DNA of 64,000 bases from an uncultured bacterium (lineage in GTDB: Bacteria; Bacteroidota; Bacteroidia; J057; JADKCL01). Where the stretch lies: the NCBI GenBank assembly GCA_963923035.1, contig CAWUKT010000009.1, positions 64,163 through 128,162 of the forward strand, given 5' to 3'. Positions 796-56,836 of this stretch are shown piece by piece. Both the position numbers and the translations under genes were made by a program. Every line of letters starts with the position of its first letter. Within the stretch, counting starts at the first letter, position 1. The notes under the pieces were generated by a model. That model was given only the letters and a program-made list of their open reading frames with translations, was not told the DNA's origin and ran no database searches.

Positions 796-1494
796 TTATT
801 CAATTTTATCTGTCAACCAGACGGCTCCAGCAATGGATTCTCCGCGGGCCGCGGCCCGGCAGGCCTGATCGGCCCGTCGCATGGGTTCGATGACCCGATA
901 GGGACCACCCATGGCGAGAACGGCTTGGACCGCCCGGTCCAGATTGATCAGGTGTCCCACGCTCACAAAGACCGGCTTCACGCCGGTCACCGTCCGCAAG
1001 GCCATGCCCACGACCTGGCCCTGGCACTTGATTTCCAGGCAACTGCCCTGTTCCGATCCCAGATCGTCCTGAAATGGGAGCAGGCTCTCCTTGGCCAGCC
1101 CGATGCAGGGCTTGTTCATCTCCAATCCCAGCCAGCTGGCCACTCCGAACAGTCGGGGATGGGCGCGCCCGTGGCCATCGACCACGAGGCAATCGATCTG
1201 GTCGAGGGCCATGCGCTGCAAGGCCGATCGCAGCACCGGACCTTCGCGAAAGGCGAAAAATCCCGGTTGGTACTCGGCTCGGACCGCTTCCTGGGTCAGG
1301 TAGGTTTTGATGTGGCGGTCGGGAAATTCGTGCAGGTCAATGGCGACGAAGGCCGTGGTGTCCAGGTATTGGACGTCGAGGGTGGCAATGATTTGGCCGG
1401 GATGGGGAATCCCGGGGTCGGAGGGATGCTCGGTGAGCACCTGGGCCGCCAGCGCTTGTTGCTGGCGTTTCATTTCATCTGGCGTCCATTCCAT
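796..1494 (-). CDS. nfi: Endonuclease V (deoxyinosine 3' endonuclease)
   Basis: The translation has EYQPGFFAFREGP and VVDGHGRAHPRLFGVASWLGL, matching the PGxLxFRE and DGxGxxHPRxxGxAsHxG motifs of Nfi. Start is ambiguous between ATG 1494 (MEWTPDEMKRQQQ) and ATG 1473 (MKRQQQ), which lies 1 nt after the upstream stop. Confidence 0.85.
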   Translation of the reverse strand: MEWTPDEMKRQQQALAAQVLTEHPSDPGIPHPGQIIATLDVQYLDTTAFVAIDLHEFPDRHIKTYLTQEAVRAEYQPGFFAFREGPVLRSALQRMALDQIDCLVVDGHGRAHPRLFGVASWLGLEMNKPCIGLAKESLLPFQDDLGSEQGSCLEIKCQGQVVGMALRTVTGVKPVFVSVGHLINLDRAVQAVLAMGGPYRVIEPMRRADQACRAAARGESIAGAVWLTDKIE

Positions 1495-4006
1495 GCCACG
1501 CCATTTCAAATTCAATTTCCGGGAATGCACTCCTGAATTGTCTTCTCCAGCTGAGCTGGAGGGGCTGCCATTCTGCTTCGCGAGATGGGTTGAGCTTTCC
1601 GTAGAGCCGGGTTTGAAGTGTACCGGTATCGGCTGTCCATTCGCCCATTGGCTGCAAAGGGCCGTCGATCAGGGGGCTTAGCTCCTCTATCCAGGCCTGT
1701 TCTTCGATCCATCCGCGGGCGGCAGCCTGTGCATCGGTATCGGTAACCCCGATGGTCAGGGAAAGGTAAGTTTCCGAGGATGGGGCGGGCGAGGAGAAAA
1801 AGTCCAGCCAGGAGGCCTCGCCGCGTTGGATGCGCCAAATGGTATCCAAACCCTGCCGAAATTCCTCCTGGAGGTGGAGCAGAATGGCGGAGGGCACCTT
1901 GGAAGTGGTATTCGTGGGGGGAAATCCAACGGACAGTACCTGCATTGGAGCGTCAAACTGGGCGGTATAGTAGCCCTCGCGGACGGTGAGCGGATTCCGC
2001 CAATCGTGCTGGATCAGCCGCTGGAACATGTTTTCCAACCATTTCTCCGGCATTTCTTCCGCCTCCGTTCCCGCCAACATCAACAGCCAGGCCATAATCG
2101 ATGGGTATCCCCACTGGGGCTGGTTGATGTTCCGGGCGCTGGTCCACAATTGGAGGGCGTGGAAGGCGTTCCCGAAGATCGCCAATCCGGCATCGAGGTG
2201 CCGACGCAAGGCTGCGACTTCCAGCGATATGGTCAGGACGGCCTGGTCTGCGTCGGAAAAGCGTTTGAATGCTTCGGTCGGCAATTGGCTCGGACGGACC
2301 AGGGGAATGTCCTCCGGGTAGCTGACATAGGCCAGGTTGATGTCGAGTCCTCCGGTTTGCAATCGGCTTCCCTCTAGGGTATCCACACCATCGTTTTCGC
2401 GCCAGAATTGTTGGAAGGCGGCCAGTTTTTGCCGGCCCACGACCAGCAAATCGAGCCCAACAGCGGGAACTTTTATGTCGAGACCGCTCAGTCCCACCGT
2501 CCAATGACGGCTGTGGGTATCCCACCGCTGCAATGTCATTTTGACCAGGGCATCCGCTTTTCGCCGATTCACAAGTTCCAACGCATTGAGTTGTAAGCCG
2601 CCCATGGCCAGGGCCGTCGTCAGATTTTGATCACGAAGCCGGAACCGGTGCTTCTTACCCGCACCTGTATCCCAGGGGATCACTTTCCGGACCACCATAG
2701 GGCCGTCGCCCCGTCGACTCAGGAGGCAGAGCGCGCCGACCTCATCTTTCCAATCGATCAGCACCTTTTCAAGGTCTTGCTTGGTATCCATCGCATTCCA
2801 TTGGCCGGGAATCTTGGCGATGGTGAGGTGCGGCTGAAAATCACCGTGGCGGTCCTGCTCGGTGCATTGCGGGAAGACTTCCTGGCAGATTTCCTGGAGT
2901 TGTCGGAACCGGTCGGTGGCATGGGCATCGGGTTTCCACCACAAGACGGTCTTCCGCCTCTGCTCAAAGTGGCCAATACCGCTGATTTCCAGTGAGAAGG
3001 AGGCTTCTTCTGAGAAGGCGAGTGAAAGGGCCGCGGCCGCAGCAGGAAACAAGGCATCGGGAATGAACCCGTAGAGCAGGTTGATATGGGGCATCCAACG
3101 GGAGAAGTCAGGATCGATATCCCGCCGAATGGACTGGATCGGCCCCCACAGGTGGGGCGGCGGAACGTAGGCCAGGGCCGAGCGGTGGGTGATCGGAGCT
3201 TCGGCCAGGTGCCGGTAGGAGGGATTCAGGAGAAAAGTCGCGACCAGAATTCCCTGTGAGGGAGATTCGGCTTGCCAGGGAACCAATTGGGCGTGGGGGC
3301 TGGCAAATGCGATGTGGGGCGTATCGGGATGCGGAGTGTCGGGCTGCAAGCGTTCCCAAAGGTCCGTTTCGAGGGGCTGGGAATGGATGGCGACCGAGGG
3401 CATATCGGAAGCGAGGCTGGGACCGAGGTGAAATTGAAAGGGTTGGGCGTTGAAGGAAAAGCGGAGGCCCAGGTGGTCTTCCCGTTGGATTTGGGAGGGG
3501 GCAAAGGGGGAATAAACGGTGCCAGCGCCCTCAGGGGCGTCCCAGCGGTACCAGCCCGCAAGGGCGGGCAACCAGGAGGGCGGGGAACCCGCTGCCACCA
3601 CAAAATCCATTTTGAGGACCAGGGAGGCCGCGTCAGCGGGCGCAGGGGCATTTTCCTCGACCACCATCCACCGCAGCCATTCGACTTTGTAATTGTCACC
3701 GCCTGCTTCCGGATCGGTTGGAGACTCATTTTCCCGCCAAATCTCCTCCGGTTTCGATTCTCCCGATCCAAACACCCGGTCTTTGCGCGTTGCCCGGTCC
3801 CAAATCCGTTCCCCATCCAACACAAAGTACCAGACCCGTGACCAAGGAATCCGGCCGCCAGGATAAAATTCCGTCAGCTCCATTTCCATGGTGCCGGAAT
3901 GGCGGTCTTCGTAGCCAATCCGAATCCGGTCGAGCGGGAATTCACCACTCCATTTCAGGCGGTGGTAAACATCTTCAGAACTGCGCAGGGGACGTTTGGG
4001 GGCCAT
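1475..4006 (-). CDS. Multidomain RNA-end processing protein: MJ1316/DUF504-like N-terminus, 2H phosphoesterase, poly(A)-polymerase-like nucleotidyltransferase
   Basis: 843-aa ORF. N-terminus is DVYHRLKWSGEFPLDRIRIGYEDRH..IPWSRVWYFVLDGERIWDRATRKD (MJ1316 pattern). Two HxT/N motifs (WMPHINLLYGF and QPHLTIAKI) mark a 2H fold. GLSGLDIKVPAVGLDLLVVG followed by GGLDINLAYV is a pol-beta/PAP-type NTase signature. Confidence 0.85.
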   Translation of the reverse strand: MAPKRPLRSSEDVYHRLKWSGEFPLDRIRIGYEDRHSGTMEMELTEFYPGGRIPWSRVWYFVLDGERIWDRATRKDRVFGSGESKPEEIWRENESPTDPEAGGDNYKVEWLRWMVVEENAPAPADAASLVLKMDFVVAAGSPPSWLPALAGWYRWDAPEGAGTVYSPFAPSQIQREDHLGLRFSFNAQPFQFHLGPSLASDMPSVAIHSQPLETDLWERLQPDTPHPDTPHIAFASPHAQLVPWQAESPSQGILVATFLLNPSYRHLAEAPITHRSALAYVPPPHLWGPIQSIRRDIDPDFSRWMPHINLLYGFIPDALFPAAAAALSLAFSEEASFSLEISGIGHFEQRRKTVLWWKPDAHATDRFRQLQEICQEVFPQCTEQDRHGDFQPHLTIAKIPGQWNAMDTKQDLEKVLIDWKDEVGALCLLSRRGDGPMVVRKVIPWDTGAGKKHRFRLRDQNLTTALAMGGLQLNALELVNRRKADALVKMTLQRWDTHSRHWTVGLSGLDIKVPAVGLDLLVVGRQKLAAFQQFWRENDGVDTLEGSRLQTGGLDINLAYVSYPEDIPLVRPSQLPTEAFKRFSDADQAVLTISLEVAALRRHLDAGLAIFGNAFHALQLWTSARNINQPQWGYPSIMAWLLMLAGTEAEEMPEKWLENMFQRLIQHDWRNPLTVREGYYTAQFDAPMQVLSVGFPPTNTTSKVPSAILLHLQEEFRQGLDTIWRIQRGEASWLDFFSSPAPSSETYLSLTIGVTDTDAQAAARGWIEEQAWIEELSPLIDGPLQPMGEWTADTGTLQTRLYGKLNPSREAEWQPLQLSWRRQFRSAFPEIEFEMAWHGMDAR

Positions 4007-17441: not shown

Positions 17442-18785
17442 GTGAAAAATCCAAGGATCCTGAACCTCAACGACCATTTTCTTCCCGGTGTTGCTTCCTT
17501 CATCTCATTGGCAGTCTTGTTGGTGCTGATGGTGGGATGCAAAACGACCTCGGAGGTCAATATCGTCCATTCTGCCGCCGCGCAGCCCTCAAGTACTGCC
17601 TCCTGTTACGATCAGGAAACGGCCTTTGATGCCTGGCGAAACTTCGATTTGGATGCGGCCCGTTCCAAGCCTTCGGTCAACGATGGGGCCAATTGGGAGA
17701 GGATGCTGGATTATTTGGTGGCGGGAAAAGGAAAACGACCGGGAGAAAAAGATACCCTGGGAACCCAGGAAGACGCACAAAAGCGGGATTGGAACGCATT
17801 GCAGCAGGCCGTGGCCTGGATGGAAAGCGATTACGCAACCTTGGATTGGTGGGAGAACCGACCCGATGTTCCCGATCCCTCGGAAGCACAGGGCGCGAAT
17901 TCCTTCCGCGGACTGAAAGCGCCCTTCCAATTGACATTTCCCGATACCGCATTTTCCCTGCCCCTCTACTTCAACAACGGCAACAACCCGCTCGTTGACG
18001 TTACCCTCAACGGCAAGTCCTTTCGGTTCTGGATCGACACCGGTGCCGGTGTAAACGTGATTTCTTCGAAGGTGGCCAGTCTGGCCGGAATCAACCCGCC
18101 AGAATCGAGCGGCATCCAAATGGGGACGGCCACCAAGCATTCGGTGAATGGCCAAATGGCCACGGCCGATGAGTTGGCCCTGGGACCACTCAAGGCCCAA
18201 AATGTCCCCTTCATGATCCTGGACAAGCGGGACCTGACGGTCCGGCTGTTGGGGATTCCTGTAGTGAGAATCGATGGAATCATCGGCTGGCCCTTCCTCA
18301 AGGAGCTGGACGTGGAGCTGGATACCCCCGGCCAAACCCTGACGGTGCGCAAGCCCCAGGTCGATCCAGTCGACCAGCCCAATCTATTTTGGTACTGGCA
18401 ACCCATATTCCGAATTCCCACATCCAAAGGCTGCTTCCTCCACCTCAAGGTGGATACGGGCTCCTCAGCAACGTTTTTCTATCCCTCGGCCTATCCCAAG
18501 ATGGGCCGGGAAGTGGAAAAAACCAGCCGACTTTTGCTGGGAGGCGCGGGAGGAAAGGAAATGATCAAGGTAGACCAACTGAGCGATTGCCAATTCTGGC
18601 TGGGCGGGGAGGAAGTCACTTTGAAGTACGCGGAAGGCCGCCAGGAAGCAGTCGAGCCGGGGGATTTCTTCGAGCTGGACGGGATTATTGGGCAGGATAT
18701 TCTGAGTCTGGGCAGCCTGCGGCTGGATTTTGTGAACCGGAGGTTTGTCTTCGAGTTCGCGGACGAAGCCAACGAAAATCAATGA
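17442..18785 (+). CDS. Lipoprotein with two retropepsin-like aspartic protease lobes
   Basis: GTG start. Lipobox VLLVLMVGC. Two catalytic-type motifs in one chain: FRFWIDTGAGVNVIS and FLHLKVDTGSSATFFY. Confidence 0.8.
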   Translation: MKNPRILNLNDHFLPGVASFISLAVLLVLMVGCKTTSEVNIVHSAAAQPSSTASCYDQETAFDAWRNFDLDAARSKPSVNDGANWERMLDYLVAGKGKRPGEKDTLGTQEDAQKRDWNALQQAVAWMESDYATLDWWENRPDVPDPSEAQGANSFRGLKAPFQLTFPDTAFSLPLYFNNGNNPLVDVTLNGKSFRFWIDTGAGVNVISSKVASLAGINPPESSGIQMGTATKHSVNGQMATADELALGPLKAQNVPFMILDKRDLTVRLLGIPVVRIDGIIGWPFLKELDVELDTPGQTLTVRKPQVDPVDQPNLFWYWQPIFRIPTSKGCFLHLKVDTGSSATFFYPSAYPKMGREVEKTSRLLLGGAGGKEMIKVDQLSDCQFWLGGEEVTLKYAEGRQEAVEPGDFFELDGIIGQDILSLGSLRLDFVNRRFVFEFADEANENQ

Positions 18786-33828: not shown

Positions 33829-34239
33829 TCAGGACGTCACCTGAAGTGCGTCCAGTTTGGCCTGAAGATCAGCGGTTTGCAGAATCAAAAACTCTTGCAT
33901 TCGTATGAGCTTGATCATGAACTGCTTAACCCGATATCCGGGCCGCAACATTTCGGCCGACGGAAATCCAGGAAGATGCTGATTTTCAAGGAGAAAGCTG
34001 GCCATATCCTGCAAGTCTTCCAATTGATCCGGATGAATAATTTCCTTTTCAATATCTGCAATGAAAATATCCGAATTGTCGCCTTCGAGTTGAATCGCGA
34101 CGGATCCGTTTTCCCGCAGAACGGCCAAATTTCCATCGTAACCATTTCCGCCAATATTCATTTCAGCCGGTTCGCCGGTGATTTGAACGGTTACATTTTC
34201 TTGAGCGTTTACGATTTGAATTACGTTTTCTTGCATCAT
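33829..34239 (-). CDS. Hypothetical protein (136 aa)
   Basis: ORF in an AT-richer segment. Has a Gly/Asn-rich N-terminal half (NIGGNGYDGNLAVLRENGSVAIQLEGDNSDIF) and a helical C-terminus (LILQTADLQAKLDALQ). No signal peptide. Confidence 0.6.
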   Translation of the reverse strand: MMQENVIQIVNAQENVTVQITGEPAEMNIGGNGYDGNLAVLRENGSVAIQLEGDNSDIFIADIEKEIIHPDQLEDLQDMASFLLENQHLPGFPSAEMLRPGYRVKQFMIKLIRMQEFLILQTADLQAKLDALQVTS

Positions 34240-34540: not shown

Positions 34541-35857
34541 TCAATCGGTCCAGGCGGCCTTGTTCTCGGCCCGCTGCCGACGAAGTGAGGCCACTGTTTC
34601 TTCCTGGGGGATGCCCAGTTGCCCCAACCGGGCAACGAAGTTCCTGCGGTGGGCGTCGCCCATCCCGGCAATCAGGTAACCGCCGTTGTTCGCCTCGACG
34701 ACCCGGTTCCACATAACTTCTTCCCGGGCCGGGTTCATGTCTTGAAGGTCCGCGCCGAGATTCCCCGCGAGGGTCTCTCCGGCAGCTTCGAGCCGGGCAT
34801 TCCCGGATTCGTTCCCCAATTGCTGGATATAATCGGCTCCGTAGTAGTGGAACCGGACCGAGAACTCTTCCAAAATGGGCAGGTTGGCGAATTGGTTGGG
34901 CTCGCACAGCTCATAAATGCCCACCAGGTCGCTGGCATCCTTGGCCTGCATGAATGCATCGAGGATGGCCTGGTGGGCCAGATAATACTCGACCACCTTG
35001 CGGGCCGATTTCATGTAGGGACTCTCCACGAAGGTTTCCTCCTGAAATGGAAACTGGGAAAGGTCCTGGGCGATGTGGATGGCCATGGAGTAATACAAGG
35101 CGATCCGATCGCCGATGGAGTAGGAGTCGGCATCCGACCGTCCACTGTACCGCCGGCGGTCCGCCTCGGACATATTGGGGGGATCGGCCGCCATGAAACG
35201 GTTCCGGAACAAGGCGGTCCCGGTCATGGCCTTGATCACGATATTTTCCAGGTGGGGATCAAACGCGGCCCGGTTGACAAAGGGGCCGGTGTCCAGGTTG
35301 GCCTCGATCTGTTGGGTGCGGGTCCGCGTCCCATTGCCCATCTGGGCGTTGGGGATGGCGGTGGTGTCTGTGAATTCGTGGTGGGGCTCGTACACAAAGC
35401 GGGACGTCCCAAAGGCGGCGATGACGTCCGGCACATTGCCGTCGGGGTTGTGGTGGCGCTCCCCGAGGACGGTCAGCCGATCGTTGGGGAGGCGGTACCA
35501 GTAGGTCTCGCCGGATTGGGTGCGCACATCACCGATGTTGTCGGTATTCCCGTTGGCGTAGTTCTCCAACTCCGCCACGTCATTGAAGATCCGCTTGACC
35601 TCGTCACCGATCAAATCCCGGACCGGGAACCGGTTTCCGATATTTTCCTTGGACCCGCCCACCTGGTACTCGTCCTCGGCGACCCGCGTGGAGCCACCAT
35701 TGACGCGAACCTGGCGTTGAACGGGCTTGGAGTTGGGAGGGGGGAGTGAATTGCCGCCTCCCTGGGCGTCAAATGCGCTTCGTTGGAGTGGATGAGACGA
35801 CGATGCTTCTTGCTTCTGGTTCTCAGAGCTCAGCTGAAGAGGGTTTGATTCAGACAT
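34541..35857 (-). CDS. Orphan protein: disordered P-x-Q-R leader plus possible Tiki/ChaN/EreA-like domain
   Basis: MSESNPLQLSSENQKQEASSSHPLQRSAFDAQGGGNSLPPPNSKPVQRQVRV.. is followed by LTVLGERHHNPDG (GExH), and IAGMGDAHRRNFVARLGQLGIP (GxxH) lies about 270 aa later. ATG 35857 preferred over TTG 35881. Confidence 0.75.
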   Translation of the reverse strand: MSESNPLQLSSENQKQEASSSHPLQRSAFDAQGGGNSLPPPNSKPVQRQVRVNGGSTRVAEDEYQVGGSKENIGNRFPVRDLIGDEVKRIFNDVAELENYANGNTDNIGDVRTQSGETYWYRLPNDRLTVLGERHHNPDGNVPDVIAAFGTSRFVYEPHHEFTDTTAIPNAQMGNGTRTRTQQIEANLDTGPFVNRAAFDPHLENIVIKAMTGTALFRNRFMAADPPNMSEADRRRYSGRSDADSYSIGDRIALYYSMAIHIAQDLSQFPFQEETFVESPYMKSARKVVEYYLAHQAILDAFMQAKDASDLVGIYELCEPNQFANLPILEEFSVRFHYYGADYIQQLGNESGNARLEAAGETLAGNLGADLQDMNPAREEVMWNRVVEANNGGYLIAGMGDAHRRNFVARLGQLGIPQEETVASLRRQRAENKAAWTD

Positions 35858-35986
35858 GATTTTGTTTGTAGTTCTTAACAATCAATATACTAATTAATTG
35901 GAACAAAGGAGATTAGGAATGAATTCTTTGAAAAGGAGAATTGTTTTGCCCTTTGAATTTCCACCGAAAATGTCTACCTCATACCT

Positions 35987-48473: not shown

Positions 48474-49385
48474 ATGAAAAAGCGTCTGTCCACTCCGGCT
48501 CCGGTCCAGCGGAGTACCATGTCTTCTGGTAACAAGGCTTATTCCGGGAAGCAGCCACCTCCCGTTCAACTCCAGGCCTCAAGGGGCCAACTCCCCCAAC
48601 AAGAAGATTTGCAGATCGCCATGGCCAATCGTGGCCACGATTGGACTCCGGACCAACGGGCGGGCCTCAATCTGGGTGACCAGTTGGGTCCTGATCTCAA
48701 CCGTCGTGTTCCCGCCGGACGCCAGGCCGAACTGCGGCAGTACGCCCGCGACCTGATGGACCGCTATTCTGACAAGCCCAACCCCACGCACCCCAACCGT
48801 CCCGGACCCACTTACTTGGACTTTGTGGATTTCTCCGCCATGCTCGACGAGATCGTCGACCACGATTCCAATACCGTGGAAAAGGTGGTCATTTGGAACC
48901 ACATTGGCATTTACGCCCGTGATTATGGCATCCGTAACCGGGGCCTGCACGAGGACTTCCACGAGCCCATTGCCAAGTGGGACAGCCATAAGCACATCAT
49001 TTTGCCCTTTACCGACGATTACCACGGCCACTACGGCGGAGCTGAAGGCGATGAGAATGTGGATTTGAGTAGTGTCGATCCGCCTCACTGGATCGACTTG
49101 GACAACTCCGATGATCGTACTTGGTGGAATAACTTGCCTAACCGGGACAGCATGTCCCATGGTCCGGGGAAGATTTCCGAAGCCTATGCTGAGGTATTGT
49201 TCCGGGAAAACCGGGATTCCGAGATTTTCCGGGGCCGCCGAATCATCAATGGCTATTTGGGTGCCCACCGGGCCGATGCTGAAGCCAGCTTTGCCACCAT
49301 CGAAAATATCCGGGCCTTCCGCTGGGGGGGATTCTCAGGTTTTGCGAACTCCTTTGATCGCCAGGTCCGTACCTACGATTATTGA
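48474..49385 (+). CDS. Orphan protein with P-V-Q-R/P-V-Q-L leader and a His-rich core containing HEDFH
   Basis: MKKRLSTPAPVQRSTMSSGNKAYSGKQPPPVQLQASRGQLPQQ.. is a disordered leader like that of 34541-35857. The core has GLHEDFHEPIAKWDSHKHIILPFTDDYHGHYGG (an HExxH-pattern). Confidence 0.7.
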   Translation: MKKRLSTPAPVQRSTMSSGNKAYSGKQPPPVQLQASRGQLPQQEDLQIAMANRGHDWTPDQRAGLNLGDQLGPDLNRRVPAGRQAELRQYARDLMDRYSDKPNPTHPNRPGPTYLDFVDFSAMLDEIVDHDSNTVEKVVIWNHIGIYARDYGIRNRGLHEDFHEPIAKWDSHKHIILPFTDDYHGHYGGAEGDENVDLSSVDPPHWIDLDNSDDRTWWNNLPNRDSMSHGPGKISEAYAEVLFRENRDSEIFRGRRIINGYLGAHRADAEASFATIENIRAFRWGGFSGFANSFDRQVRTYDY

Positions 49386-50315
<930 letters not shown>

Positions 50316-53557: not shown

Positions 53558-56500
53558 TTAATTCATCTTGATCACTTTGTGCTCTTCCACGTAGGAATCA
53601 GCGCGGAGTTGGAGCAGGTAGACACCGGCGGGAACATCCGGCTGGATGCTGAGGTCCCGCGTCCGGATGCCGCTTTGGCGGTAGACTTCCTTGCCCATCA
53701 GGTCATACATCACGACTTCCGCACTTTGCTGCGGCAATTCCAGTTCCGGAAGGACGATGTCCAAACGGCTTTGGAATGGATTGGGAGAGACCTGGAAGGA
53801 ATTCCGTCGGGCCGGAATCTCGTCCGAGATGGCCATGCTCTCGCCTGCGCCTTCACAACTGGTTTCGTAAACCTTGACATTACGGAAATAGGAATTGCTG
53901 GTGGTAGGCGCGGCATCCTTGTCGCAGAGGAAGAACAGCCGGTCGTAGGAGCCCGTGTAAATGGACCCGATCGGAATGGTGTAGCTGGTCCAAGCGGAGG
54001 GGACATAATTGTCGTAGGTGGTATTGCCCCAGCTCTGGGTGCCGTGGACCTTCATGCTCTGGGAAGGAGAAACGCCCGCATCGTTGTCAAAGCCAATGGC
54101 GTGGATTTCACCCTCTGCCGTCGACCGGAAATCAAATTCAATGACCGTATTCGCGGTGACATTGTAATTGAAGCTGATCGATTTCCAGGAATTGTTCTGG
54201 ACCAGCAGGGTCGCGCCACCATCCTGAACGGCCGCTGAACCCTGGTCATTGCTGCCCCCGTAGGTATCGATGCTGACCGCGCTAAAGTCAACCGTCGGGC
54301 AGCTGGAGCCACTCGTTGTCGTAACCTGCACATCGTCAAGGGCGATGTCACTGCGGTAGCCCGCTCCGGTAGTTCCCTGGAACCGCAATTGGACGGTATT
54401 GCCGACCCAGGAGGAAAGGTTCACAGTGGCCTGCTGCCAGCTATTGCCCTGGTCTCCGCTCAACGAGAACTGGTTCCCCGACCAGGTTGAGCCGTTGTTG
54501 GTACTGACCTGTACCGTCAGACTGCCCATATCTGCGCCATACATGTGGTACCAGAAACTGAGTTCCGCATTGGATTGGCCGCTGAGGTCAAAGCAAGGGC
54601 TGGTGATGCTGAAGGTATTGTTGAAGCAGCTGGACGCCTCGGTATAGAGGAATTTGCCGCCGCCGGAGTGGTCTGCACTCGGACCAGTGCTACCGGAAGG
54701 CGTATTGGCGTCGTCCACCGCCCAATCGGCAGCGTCACCGCTGACATTGCTCCAGCCGGCTCCTAGGCTGCATGCACCGTCAGGTACGCAGGCAAACAGG
54801 GTGTTTTGACACAGCGAGAGGCCATCGAAAGTTTGGGTATAGGGGAAGCTGCTGATCGTCGTGGTACAGCCTCCGCCGGAGGAGCCGCCCGCAGCAATGC
54901 GGAGATCGTCGACGCAGATATCGCCGGTATAACTGGTTCCGCTTGTGCCCCGGAACCGCAAACGGAGCTCGGTGGCGCTGGTATAGGCATTCAGGCTCAC
55001 GGAAGCACTTTGCCAGGCGCTGCCCTGGTCGCCGGTAATAGACCAGATTTCGGACCAGGCGGTGCCATCGGTGCTGGCTTCCAACCGCAAGGTACCGACC
55101 GTAGCGCCAAGGGCGTGGTACTGGAAGGTCAGGGTGGGGTTGGAAACGGAAGAAAGGTTGAAGCAGGGAGAATTGAGAATGGCGGTTCGGGTGGGATAAT
55201 TGGGACTGGAAACCTCCATGTAAGCGTAGTAGGATCCGGCTGCGGCTCCCGTGGGGCCGGTGCCACTGGATCCGGTTCCCCCGGTTTGGCGGGTCCAATC
55301 GAAGTCATCGCCGCTGCCCTGGGTCCATCCCAGGGAGGACTCGAAGCCTTCGGTATAGGGGAAGACGCTGATGGTACTCGTGCAGCCGCCACCGCCGCCG
55401 CTGCCACTCTGGTAGGCGCCATTCAGGGTATTGGGAGCACTGCCGAGCGGGTCGAGGTGGTCACGCAAACGGCGTTGGGGAGAGCCATAGCCATTCCAGG
55501 ACAGGTCCAAACGACCGTAGATGCCGGGGTCGGCTGAGGGGTTGGAGCAGTTGATGGAGCTGCCGCCGTGCAACTGGCCGATGATGTGGGAGCTGGCGTT
55601 GAAGAGGGGAGAGCCGGAAGACCCACCTTCGGTGACACTGTGGCCGTTGGGAGTGCCGTCCCAATTGACCCGCCAATGGGAATTGGTAGGAGTGCCCGAC
55701 CAGGTATAGGTCGTCGGAGTTTGGCTGTGGGTGGCAATTTTCTTGATATCACCCGCTGGGTGGTGGATGCCAACGCCGCCAGATCCGGGACTACTGGTTC
55801 GGTTCCAACCGTTGAAGTAAACGTCGTGACCGGCGGCCCGAGGGTCTTCCGTCAGGCGGAACAGGGCCATGTCGGTTTGCGTCGCATTGGCGATCAGGGT
55901 TGCGCCAGCCGTCGTTTGGAGAGCGCCGGGGTTGGAATTGGAGCAACCGGGGCTCTCGTATTCCCAGGCAAAGGACCAGTTGGTGGCATTTGGATTGCTG
56001 ACAGCATCCAGGCCACCGGTGAGGCAGTGGGCGGCGGTCAAAAATAGCAGGTCACCGTCCTGGGCAGTATTGTTGATGAGGGAGCCGGAGCACCAACGGG
56101 TTCCACCCACCAGGATCATGGCAACGCCTTTTTTCTCGTCCTGCCACGCATTTCCTTCGGAGCAGTTCACATTGACCTGGCAAGCGCCGGAGCTTCCATA
56201 GACCCGGGAACCGTCAATATTTGGCGGGGGAATCATCCGGTAGCCATGGACAGCGTACTGGATGGAGATGATGGCATCTTCCTGGGTTTCAATGGGCTGC
56301 TCGTATTCCACGACGATCCCATCAGCGTAGATCAGGCTGGTCGCAAAGGCTTCCAACTCCTGGCGGGTGCCTTTGTTGTTGCGGTTGGTGAAGGCGCCGA
56401 GGACCTGGCTGCGGTCTTCGCTGTAAATGTACAGCCGGCCGCCTTCGGGCAACCAAAACTTGTCGTAGAGGAGGTTGATGGAAATGGCACCGGGACACAG

Positions 56501-56836
56501 GATGCGGGTCCGCCAAATCTCCATGCCATCTCCAATGTCTTCGTTGTCACCGTCACGGAGCAGGTCGAGGTTGATTTCCTGGGGAAAACCGAACCGCGGC
56601 GGCAGGCCATTGGCCTCGTCGCTTTCGTCTTGCGCCTCGATGAGGCGCAGGTCCAATGAAGGAGTCTGTACAGTTTGGAGGTTGCGCAAAGGCATTACCG
56701 GGGAGGAAAAGGAAGTGGGTTGCCCCCCTTCACTCAGCTGAGCCTGAAGGGTGGGAGCACCCATCAAGGCGATGAAAAAAAGCAAAACATAGCTTCGTGT
56801 TCGGCCATACCAAGGGCCTGTCAACATGGAATCCAT
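53558..56836 (-). CDS. Secreted trypsin-like (S1) serine endopeptidase with two MAM domains and T9SS C-terminal sorting domain
   Basis: FLTAAHC (His) and GGSSGSPLF (Ser). Two MAM-like units (FDWTRQTGGTGSSGTGP..SPCFNL..LTFQYHALG and ADWAVDDANTPSGSTGPSADH..SPCFDL..LSFWYHMYG). C-terminus FQVSPNPFQSRLDIVL..VVMYDLMGKEV..VPAGVYLLQL. Confidence 0.9.
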   Translation of the reverse strand: MDSMLTGPWYGRTRSYVLLFFIALMGAPTLQAQLSEGGQPTSFSSPVMPLRNLQTVQTPSLDLRLIEAQDESDEANGLPPRFGFPQEINLDLLRDGDNEDIGDGMEIWRTRILCPGAISINLLYDKFWLPEGGRLYIYSEDRSQVLGAFTNRNNKGTRQELEAFATSLIYADGIVVEYEQPIETQEDAIISIQYAVHGYRMIPPPNIDGSRVYGSSGACQVNVNCSEGNAWQDEKKGVAMILVGGTRWCSGSLINNTAQDGDLLFLTAAHCLTGGLDAVSNPNATNWSFAWEYESPGCSNSNPGALQTTAGATLIANATQTDMALFRLTEDPRAAGHDVYFNGWNRTSSPGSGGVGIHHPAGDIKKIATHSQTPTTYTWSGTPTNSHWRVNWDGTPNGHSVTEGGSSGSPLFNASSHIIGQLHGGSSINCSNPSADPGIYGRLDLSWNGYGSPQRRLRDHLDPLGSAPNTLNGAYQSGSGGGGGCTSTISVFPYTEGFESSLGWTQGSGDDFDWTRQTGGTGSSGTGPTGAAAGSYYAYMEVSSPNYPTRTAILNSPCFNLSSVSNPTLTFQYHALGATVGTLRLEASTDGTAWSEIWSITGDQGSAWQSASVSLNAYTSATELRLRFRGTSGTSYTGDICVDDLRIAAGGSSGGGCTTTISSFPYTQTFDGLSLCQNTLFACVPDGACSLGAGWSNVSGDAADWAVDDANTPSGSTGPSADHSGGGKFLYTEASSCFNNTFSITSPCFDLSGQSNAELSFWYHMYGADMGSLTVQVSTNNGSTWSGNQFSLSGDQGNSWQQATVNLSSWVGNTVQLRFQGTTGAGYRSDIALDDVQVTTTSGSSCPTVDFSAVSIDTYGGSNDQGSAAVQDGGATLLVQNNSWKSISFNYNVTANTVIEFDFRSTAEGEIHAIGFDNDAGVSPSQSMKVHGTQSWGNTTYDNYVPSAWTSYTIPIGSIYTGSYDRLFFLCDKDAAPTTSNSYFRNVKVYETSCEGAGESMAISDEIPARRNSFQVSPNPFQSRLDIVLPELELPQQSAEVVMYDLMGKEVYRQSGIRTRDLSIQPDVPAGVYLLQLRADSYVEEHKVIKMN

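Follow-up and report, generated by a model that had tools for sequence, protein, structure and literature searches.

The window analysed here is a stretch of 64,000 nucleotides from an uncultured member of the Bacteroidota (assembly GCA_963923035.1, contig CAWUKT010000009.1, positions 64,163 to 128,162), and the genes in question are two unlinked ones, hereafter A and B, whose products begin with a leader or leader-like N-terminus (table 1). A is most likely a toxin cargo, because other bacteria mostly fuse its body domain to DUF4157 beside phage-tail-like injection machines. On balance, we favour the view that A is a stand-alone cargo or effector of the DUF4157/extracellular contractile injection system (eCIS) class, in which the DUF4157 module was lost and a short disordered leader was kept. 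For B, a role as another cargo bearing the leader specific to this lineage (PPxFQLxA type) is probable, although with much less certainty than for A.

A had been presented as an orphan in an earlier, sequence-only reading of the window, and this does not hold. Indeed, 82 close homologs of A were retrieved (41–99% identity), and an exhaustive profile search among 1.84 billion representatives delimited a body family of 212 clusters at E ≤ 1e-3, a number low enough for this family to be called rare. In 49 of the 82 homologs, PF13699 (DUF4157, now named ‘eCIS core domain’) was detected upstream of the body, the matched region covering approximately 90% of A, and the source annotations of such homologs read ‘DUF4157 domain-containing’ or ‘eCIS core domain-containing’. 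The payload of A is 43–56% identical to these fused proteins over approximately 90% of A, including the protein encoded after the eCIS operon of a gammaproteobacterial contig (L003). PF13699 is also carried by 33 of 86 distant relatives, and no other domain recurs among those 86. The hosts of the family are Nitrospirota, Gamma- and Alphaproteobacteria, Acidobacteriota, Cyanobacteria, Actinomycetota, relatives of Leptospirae, Chitinophagales, Saprospiraceae and Kapaibacteria, a patchy taxonomic spread such as mobile toxin modules typically show.

The genomic setting of these homologs points in the same direction. On L003, genes for a sheath, a gp19 tube, a T4 baseplate protein, a Pfam-unmatched protein, Pvc16_N and an AAA+ protein precede a gene for a DUF4157 protein, then that for the DUF4157-body fusion, accompanied by its 60-aa partner, and then a further DUF4157 gene, a layout that corresponds to the canonical position of eCIS effectors at the operon’s 3′ end (PMC8213781). 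On a Nitrospiraceae contig (L018), six DUF4157 genes with differing C-termini stand in a row, the A homolog being third among them, and 25 of the 138 open reading frames (ORFs) flanking the body genes across 11 genome loci are DUF4157. A distance of no more than about ten genes from an eCIS operon was found for L003 and, in part, for L018 and L016. Between the fusions, the DUF4157 arrays, this eCIS-adjacent locus and the roughly sevenfold enrichment of QR motifs described below, the link to DUF4157-type effectors of contractile injection systems, which the earlier reading had suggested, is borne out for A.

As a separate observation on these loci, a protein of approximately 1,130 aa with DUF6519 and a beta-helix and an unannotated protein of approximately 310 aa recur directly upstream of DUF4157 arrays in several phyla (L018:2001-5405; equivalents in L004, L009, L012 and L005). 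They may be uncharacterised distal components of injection loci, e.g. fibre or adaptor.

The body begins right after [P/x]-[VIL]-Q-R-x-V-R in nearly every homolog, be it preceded by DUF4157 or by a short leader, and the junction Q and R are nearly invariant in the 86 distant relatives. As QR precedes the body whatever lies upstream, the third motif of A (PVQR) is a conserved domain junction. Non-homologous proteins of the DUF4157 arrays likewise display [VIL]QR[KQETA], both in their N-terminal region and immediately behind the HExxH domain. Counted over 38 DUF4157 proteins, [VILFM]Q[RK] occurs 1.04 times per 100 aa in the N-terminal region and 0.92 times in the 40 residues after DUF4157, versus 0.14 times in the C-terminal domains and 0.139 in all other ORF segments, i.e. 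an enrichment of about 7-fold in N-terminal regions and linkers. Short homologs from Actinomycetota-like contigs have a leader of 50–65 residues ending in LALQRTxGNxAVxRxLxR and no DUF4157; the leader-only architecture of A is thus a recurrent one.

In the AlphaFold2 (AF2) model of A, which has an overall pLDDT (predicted local distance difference test) of 91.3 and a predicted template modelling score (pTM) of 0.86, residues 1–34 fall below a pLDDT of 50. The first 50 residues or so have a grand average of hydropathy (GRAVY) of −1.15, and their fraction of disorder-promoting residues (0.72) ranks first among the 44 window proteins, B being second (0.70; median 0.48). The N-termini of A and B are also the lowest of the 44 in aromaticity (0.02 for A). 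A therefore displays the disordered, hydrophilic and low-aromatic N-terminus of about 50 residues, without a Sec signal, that characterizes eCIS signals. The motif P[VLIF]Q[RLK] occurs nine times in the 18,195 aa of the 44 window proteins, about two occurrences being expected; A and B account for five of these, all within their first 50 residues, and none of the other proteins among the 44 scanned has it in its first 60 residues. When the first 60 residues of A were shuffled, its three copies were equalled in none of 200,000 shuffles. The leaders described beforehand are thus real and beyond chance by shuffling, with three P-[VL]-Q-[RL] motifs in a disordered stretch of about 45 residues in A and two motifs in B. 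Since A and B cannot be aligned by BLASTP, their resemblance is one of motif and composition and not of an alignable domain, and the idea of a leader common to the two stands to that extent.

An A-rich stretch of DNA lies directly upstream of the ATG of gene A, and an in-frame TTG at 35881 would lengthen the protein by 8 aa (ORF 34541-35881). Two other destinations were discarded for A and B: no Sec or lipoprotein signal was found on either, and neither has the Por_Secre_tail domain of a type IX secretion system (T9SS) substrate. Neither A nor B nor any of the partner proteins had a match in Pfam, NCBIfam or PADLOC.

A belongs to a lineage of four proteins (A, P0002, P0003 and P0004) that are 61–65% identical and encoded on contigs with T9SS-type neighbours. 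Their leaders follow the consensus MS[ED]..., [HS]PLQRS-GFD, PPP(FQLxA), then APIQR-x-VR. A hidden Markov model (HMM) built from these four leaders retrieved, at E = 2e-8, a second protein on the P0003 contig (L023), encoded 8.5 kb from the P0003 gene, whose own leader (MDNKAPIQAK...SGFD...PQPFQLTAANEAPLQL...PLQLQR) is alignable with that of A. Moreover, the pattern P.[FV]QL.[AS] was found in only four distinct proteins in a six-frame translation of the fetched loci amounting to 691,893 aa, all of them in this lineage, B included, and always at the N-terminus. An exact scan of metagenomes for PPP[FVL]QLQA gave at least 120 matches, and the 21 among the matches listed that passed a filter for N-terminal position in an ORF were all chance-like (ABC transporters, spurious high-GC ORFs). 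From the leader-HMM scores and the specificity of P.[FV]QL.[AS], we conclude that A and the L023 protein share a lineage-specific leader, and that B probably shares it, as judged from sequence.

Further observations concern other candidates for this type of leader. The second leader protein of L023 (L023:19908-20897, minus strand) has a body unrelated to A, with an SH3_3 match (E 5e-5, below the Pfam cutoff) and a weak JAB-like HxH...SxxD motif; its gene is followed by that of a 141-aa lipoprotein-like protein with a lipobox-like FLGAC (L023:19541-19966, minus strand). These two genes look like an independent toxin–immunity pair using an A-type leader. On L025, approximately 8 kb from the A homolog P0004, an unannotated 533-aa protein (L025:18668-20269, plus strand) displays KPPKFQLDA about 30 residues from its start; its gene adjoins a Peptidase_C39 ABC exporter and four tiny genes (41–49 aa) resembling a bacteriocin cluster.

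The body of A had also been tentatively likened to the Tiki/ChaN/erythromycin-esterase (EreA) proteins on account of two GxxH motifs, and the coordinates, strings and spacing given for them were confirmed exactly, LTVLGERHHN and IAGMGDAHRRN lying 270 residues apart. Across alignments of 61, 29 and 86 sequences, five residues of the body show no or almost no variation: E133, H135, E157, R378 and H403. The TIKI superfamily is defined by a parallel beta-sheet core with a set of two His and two Glu and a conserved basic residue, which in RRSP are E3900-x-H3902, E3930, H4030 and R4001 (PMC6254334). The order found in the A family, E-x-H...E...R...H, is that of the published TIKI signature, and the E-x-H spacing is that of RRSP E3900/H3902. 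As in the known hydrolases of this type (Tiki, TraB/PrgY/GumN PF01963, ChaN, erythromycin esterases, RRSP (MARTX), PMT C1-C2 and HopBA1; PMC6254334), the ordered residues stand after beta-strands and the alpha/beta core is interrupted by a helical region, the helical insertion of A being much larger. The distance from H to E is 22 residues in A versus 26–28 in known members, and that from R to H is 25 versus 24–29. The predicted order of secondary structures (beta-GExH, alpha, beta-E ... beta-GxGxxH, alpha, beta) appears TIKI-compatible. Unlike known members, the A family has the additional invariants K209, R240, R251, H261, D265, K306, D307 and H337, which are without known TIKI counterpart.

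Profile comparison within the superfamily covered TraB/GumN, for which a diverse alignment was assembled from Escherichia coli YbaP and plasmid homologs (invariants G38, H41, E67, E159, R228, G249 and H252). With hhalign, the 86 distant relatives of A gave a score of 28.4 against this alignment (P = 0.0063, probability 5.9%), and a combined profile of 115 sequences gave 27.3 (P = 0.011). In controls, the reversed alignment scored 14.6 and 14.0, and the maxima were 18.4 over 30 column shuffles and 20.5 over 30 block shuffles. The best segment pairs R..M...I...G.G..H...L...L..GI with RN..W...VGALHL...L...L..G; under relaxed maximum-accuracy (MAC) settings, the alignment extends collinearly to VLGExH versus LxGSIH and FxYE versus IVEA. 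Four catalytic candidates are thereby collinear with TraB/GumN residues: H135 with H41 (GSIH), E157 with E67 of YbaP, R378 with R228, and H403 with H252 (VGALH). No signal was obtained when alignment A2 of the A family was compared with YbaP alone or with a low-diversity YbaP alignment, and A2 alone against the TraB/GumN alignment (A6) paired motif 1 with TraB motif 2, without significance. In BFVD, none of the Foldseek matches was significant; the one at rank 5 (E = 0.49) is a Marseillevirus ‘TraB family protein’.

Table 1. Positions of genes A and B, of the gene divergent from A, and of their domains and motifs (window coordinates).
Feature	Position	Strand	Remarks
Gene A	34541..35857	minus	438 aa from ATG at 35857; disordered leader followed by unannotated cargo/enzyme domain
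A leader, residues 1-44	35726..35857	minus	Pro/Gln/Ser-rich, predicted disordered (AF2 pLDDT, motif statistics, composition)
PLQL, A residues 6-9	35831-35842	minus	
PLQR, A residues 23-26	35780-35791	minus	
Junction PVQRQVRVNGG, A residues 45-55	35693..35725	minus	[PVI]QR-x-VR boundary opening the body; PVQR = residues 45-48
A body domain, residues 46-438	34544..35722	minus	confident alpha/beta core split by helical insertion of ~190 residues (AF2)
Motif 1 LTVLGERHHN, A residues 128-137	35447..35476	minus	invariant G132, E133, H135; after beta-strand
RFVYEPHHE, A residues 153-161	35375..35401	minus	invariant E157, candidate second catalytic Glu
PAREEVMW, A residues 376-383	34709..34732	minus	R378 invariant or nearly so, candidate conserved basic residue
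Motif 2 IAGMGDAHRRN, A residues 396-406	34640..34672	minus	G398, G400, H403 invariant or nearly so; after beta-strand
Divergent gene, 173 aa	35987..36508	plus	signal-peptide-like N-terminus; head-to-head with A, shared upstream region of 129 bp
Gene B	48474..49385	plus	303 aa if first ATG used; leader-like N-terminus, no homologs
PAPVQRS, B residues 8-14	48495-48515	plus	
PPPVQLQAS, B residues 28-36	48555-48581	plus	
HEDFH (HExxH), B residues 159-163	48948-48962	plus	

Outside the window lineage, the body gene is accompanied by a small partner. In 21 of 21 such loci (about 17 distinct; L001–L016 and L018–L022), a gene for a protein of approximately 60 residues lies directly 3′ of the body gene, most often with a 1-nt overlap between its start and the stop codon of the body gene (e.g. 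L021:11317-11499 and L018:11758-11937). The consensus of this partner, ...AAELYxxAxxLExxxDYxxAxxxYxxSLxLxEDxxVRxAYLKLLATxGP, resembles a TPR hairpin and is without family annotation. It accompanies the body domain whatever N-terminal module is present. Gene pairs of polymorphic toxins and their immunity proteins have reportedly been described by Zhang, Aravind et al. 2012. As in such pairs (PMC4436062), a conserved small gene is placed 3′ of the gene with the toxin domain, abutting or overlapping its end; unlike in them, the partner is a single TPR-like hairpin of only about 60 residues that could equally be a chaperone. From its position, which is the classic one for cognate immunity, we regard it as a candidate immunity protein, a domain-specific chaperone being the alternative.

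The window lineage has another neighbour in common. A gene homologous to the divergent gene of table 1 (approximately 175 aa, KIIDE[FM]G motif) is found at the four lineage loci (the window, L023, L025 and L026), where the other flanking genes differ, and an HMM of the 173-aa protein matches only those four loci. This protein had no match in Pfam, PADLOC or PDB. On the other side of A, 300 bp downstream, an ORF of 136 aa (33829-34239, minus strand) without family match lies in a stretch of low GC content (38–48%); its coding score beats that of an overlapping plus-strand ORF of 286 aa, and it is not conserved beside the sister genes.

If A is a cargo, its disordered leader would serve as the loading sequence: an AAA+ ATPase would recognize it and thread A into the lumen of the tube of an injection particle whose genes lie elsewhere in the genome. 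For Cgo1 and Cgo2 of AlgoCIS, a disordered N-terminal region and the AAA+ ATPase are needed for loading, DUF4157 being dispensable (bioRxiv 10.64898/2026.05.27.728243), and eCIS signal sequences are scored by how disordered they are and by their low hydrophobicity and aromaticity (PMC11297309). The body would act as a TIKI/TraB/EreA-like hydrolase and, in the target cell, cleave an ester or peptide bond by means of a water molecule activated by His/Glu; RRSP, PMT and HopBA1 are TIKI-fold proteins delivered as effectors, and RRSP cleaves Ras/Rap1 (PMC6254334). In most lineages, the 60-residue TPR-like protein would then neutralize the body, as immunity protein, or chaperone it. In the window lineage, this partner may have been replaced or lost, the conserved divergent protein of 173 residues, predicted to be exported, standing there instead.

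Several observations weigh against this reading. Around A, no eCIS structural gene, AAA+ loader or DUF4157 protein was found in approximately 74 kb (the 64-kb window and 10 kb to its left), where the neighbours are housekeeping genes, including dnaA, and the sister loci of P0002–P0004 are likewise without eCIS within 10 kb. The contractile apparatus that had been suggested as a check is missing near A, and an operon of this kind was seen directly before the homolog of L003. A custom DUF4157 HMM matched none of the 43 window proteins (best E 0.54), so that DUF4157 is present neither in A or B nor within two genes of them. The leader of A is without the DPxExEAD helix of canonical DUF4157 N-terminal regions. 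The 60-aa partner was not found in the window, L023, L025 or L026, and the lack of an immunity-like partner throughout the lineage is odd for a toxin. B has no homologs, gets weak HMM support and has an uncertain start codon. As for the enzymatic part, A has no match in Pfam or NCBIfam, and none of the 86 relatives matches TraB, ChaN or EreA at E ≤ 10. Searches of PDB, which includes ChaN, Bcr135, HopBA1, PMT and RRSP, gave only noise with two A-family profiles (A1 and A3). With the pLDDT-91 model, Foldseek against PDB reached E 0.5 at best and a TM-score <0.25, with no TIKI member in the top 50 and no match to 2G5G, 3B55, 5T09, 2EBF or RRSP. The link to TIKI is statistically weak, with HH probabilities of 4–6% overall. 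What stands of the Tiki/ChaN/EreA suggestion is the set and order of residues and the hhalign P values of 0.006–0.011, above all 60 shuffles; the HH probability and the blank Pfam and Foldseek results do not bear it out. We lean towards a remote TIKI-like relationship of the A body, but as membership is not established, the domain was not filed as a TIKI member.

These points bring up other explanations for A. It could be a domesticated intracellular hydrolase of the TraB/GumN type, descended from a cargo ancestor and no longer exported; its disordered N-terminus would then be a linker left over from that past and play no part in targeting. Housekeeping or regulatory roles are common for TraB/GumN proteins, and such a history would suit the setting of A near dnaA, where the neighbours are housekeeping genes and approximately 74 kb contain no injection machine, DUF4157 protein or immunity-like partner; the divergent 173-aa neighbour, kept in four genomes, suggests a stable lineage-specific function, and all catalytic candidates of A are intact. 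However, the leader style is conserved in the four lineage members, recurs on the SH3/JAB-like protein, which is unrelated, and is found as motifs in two more proteins. Because it is shared across the lineage and with unrelated payloads, the leader fits a signal better than a relic; all other branches of the family are, in addition, tied to DUF4157 or eCIS. We thus consider domestication unlikely. Still less weight can be given to the idea that a DUF4157-type HExxH peptidase, acting in cis or in trans, cleaves the leader and its QR motifs as processing sites or as a propeptide, or that they direct export through the Bacteroidota type VI secretion system T6SS-iii, vesicles or lysis. The motif [VILFM]Q[RK] does coincide exactly with the boundaries between modules, as it precedes the body, follows the HExxH domain and occurs in the N-terminal region; DUF4157 bears a metallopeptidase HExxH motif whose role is unassigned (PMC8213781), and it is found in some T6SS effectors too (PMC11297309). 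Yet AlgoCIS loading needs the N-terminal region and not DUF4157 (bioRxiv 10.64898/2026.05.27.728243), the toxicity of Cgo1 reportedly does not depend on the metalloprotease motif (PMC11297309), and the window encodes no DUF4157 protein that could act in trans.

For B, the main alternative is that its leader likeness is a coincidence of low complexity, or lies upstream of the true start, B being an unrelated lineage-specific protein. This is a serious possibility, if not the one we favour. The sole database match of B is B itself, and Pfam, NCBIfam, PADLOC and PDB (phmmer) gave no match. The lineage leader HMM yields 3.6–5.7 bits on B (E 0.05–0.2), and BLASTP, as said, aligns nothing between B and A. 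Three gene callers return three lengths, 303, 288 and 254 aa (alternative starts at 48519 and 48621); the 288-aa call would remove part of the leader and the 254-aa call the whole of it, and codons 1–49 have a coding score near zero. Against coincidence, B has two motif copies versus 0.02 expected from its own composition (shuffle fraction 1.65e-4; P about 1.6e-4), and its PPPVQLQAS nearly equals the PPPFQLQAD of P0002, a pattern confined, as seen above, to N-terminal leaders of this lineage. B is also the top match of the leader HMM among the other 43 window proteins, and of the six reading frames, that of its leader scores best as coding sequence, weakly so and about as in the leader of A. 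Lastly, the first ATG is preceded by an A-rich sequence, a context that is typical of Bacteroidota starts. Since B has no homologs, family match or usable model, the case for it as cargo is made from the leader motifs, and the proposal that both proteins are cargo with a common targeting leader draws on family context and leader for A and on motifs for B.

Other readings of B were also considered. A diverged DUF4157 was rejected, as B is not among the top window matches of the custom DUF4157 HMM. A metallopeptidase is suggested by the HEDFH motif in a protein with 13 His, with no family profile match and no homologs on which to read conservation. The single-sequence AF2 model of B was not used for a fold search because of its pLDDT of 37.9. 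Between B and the convergent gene of a fatty-acid hydroxylase (49386-50315, minus strand) there are zero intergenic bases; the coding sequence for the C-terminal tail of the hydroxylase, KKKKGDEAE-SSSSSSSSSS, is a GA-rich simple repeat whose translation in another frame gives DEDEDEDEDED.

Taken together, these elements allow a broader proposal, which we put forward tentatively and consider rather doubtful as a whole. The P-x-Q-[RL]/PPxFQLxA leader could be a lineage-specific, transferable address tag placed on dispersed orphan cargo (A, B, the L023 SH3/JAB-like protein and the 533-aa protein of L025) destined for one contractile injection machine encoded elsewhere, with the [VIL]QR junctions as the core of the tag, for recognition or cleavage. 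The payload of A would then be an unrecognized branch of TIKI-fold toxins with a 60-residue TPR-hairpin immunity protein, replaced here by the exported partner of 173 residues.

N-terminal packaging signals of cargo of the Photorhabdus virulence cassette (PVC) were reportedly described by Jiang et al. 2022. Like the signals of PVC cargo (Pdp1, Pnf) and of cargo of metamorphosis-associated contractile structures (MAC), cited in bioRxiv 10.64898/2026.05.27.728243, the leader of A is a disordered, non-Sec N-terminus of about 50 residues placed before unrelated payloads and common to the payloads of one system. No sequence similarity between systems is expected or seen, and the signal of A, unlike the others, is deduced from sequence. 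The closest likeness is to eCIS toxins with an N-terminal DUF4157 (AlgoCIS Cgo1/Cgo2, EAT14; PMC8213781, PMC11297309, PMC8894135, bioRxiv 10.64898/2026.05.27.728243), which also combine a disordered N-terminus, a junction and a variable C-terminal enzyme: the body domain of A is fused to DUF4157 in most of its homologs and found in arrays after eCIS operons, its leader is disordered and low in hydrophobicity and aromaticity, and its C-terminal domain is unannotated. Unlike these toxins, A has no DUF4157 domain, DUF4157 neighbour or nearby eCIS locus, its leader uses PxQ[RL]/PPxFQLxA instead of DPxExEAD, and its body family has its own 60-aa partner, missing in the window lineage.

As a class, eCIS cargo with DUF4157 and uncharacterised C-terminal domains is already known, such unannotated domains being present on 983 of 1,130 DUF4157 proteins (PMC11297309). 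What is new is the delimitation of one payload family, with a candidate TIKI-like active site and a 60-residue partner in every non-lineage locus, and the description of leader-only orphan copies far from any machine together with their PxQ[RL]/PPxFQLxA motifs. One unannotated cargo domain thereby gains candidate catalytic residues and a testable mechanism of TIKI-like hydrolysis, to be compared with the Ras-cleaving RRSP, and the 60-residue partner could be the immunity protein of this payload. Leader-only genes can lie far from any injection locus, where predictors based on genomic context would miss them; the same payload existing in DUF4157-fused and leader-only forms, cargo can escape current predictors. 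Should the QR/FQL motifs be the recognition element for loading, they would offer a sequence handle on dispersed cargo and an aid to engineered loading tags.

The remainder of the window is core chromosome, with dnaA, methylmalonyl-CoA mutase, bshC, T9SS substrates and TonB-dependent receptors; an origin in a prophage or defence island was rejected in view of these housekeeping neighbours and the absence of any PADLOC match. Three further genes may be mentioned. An 843-aa protein (1475-4006, minus strand) fuses an MJ1316 RNA cyclic-end recognition domain, a 2′-5′ RNA ligase (2H phosphoesterase) and the central domain of a poly(A) polymerase, an unusual architecture resembling RNA repair enzymes; an Endonuclease V gene follows it in the extended contig. 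A 447-aa protein (17442-18785, plus strand) has a retroviral-type aspartyl protease domain (Asp_protease_2/gag-asp_proteas) and an N-terminal signal-like segment. Finally, a T9SS substrate of 1,092 aa (53558-56836, minus strand) combines a trypsin-like peptidase domain and a Por_Secre_tail with two MAM domains, which are mostly known from animal proteins.

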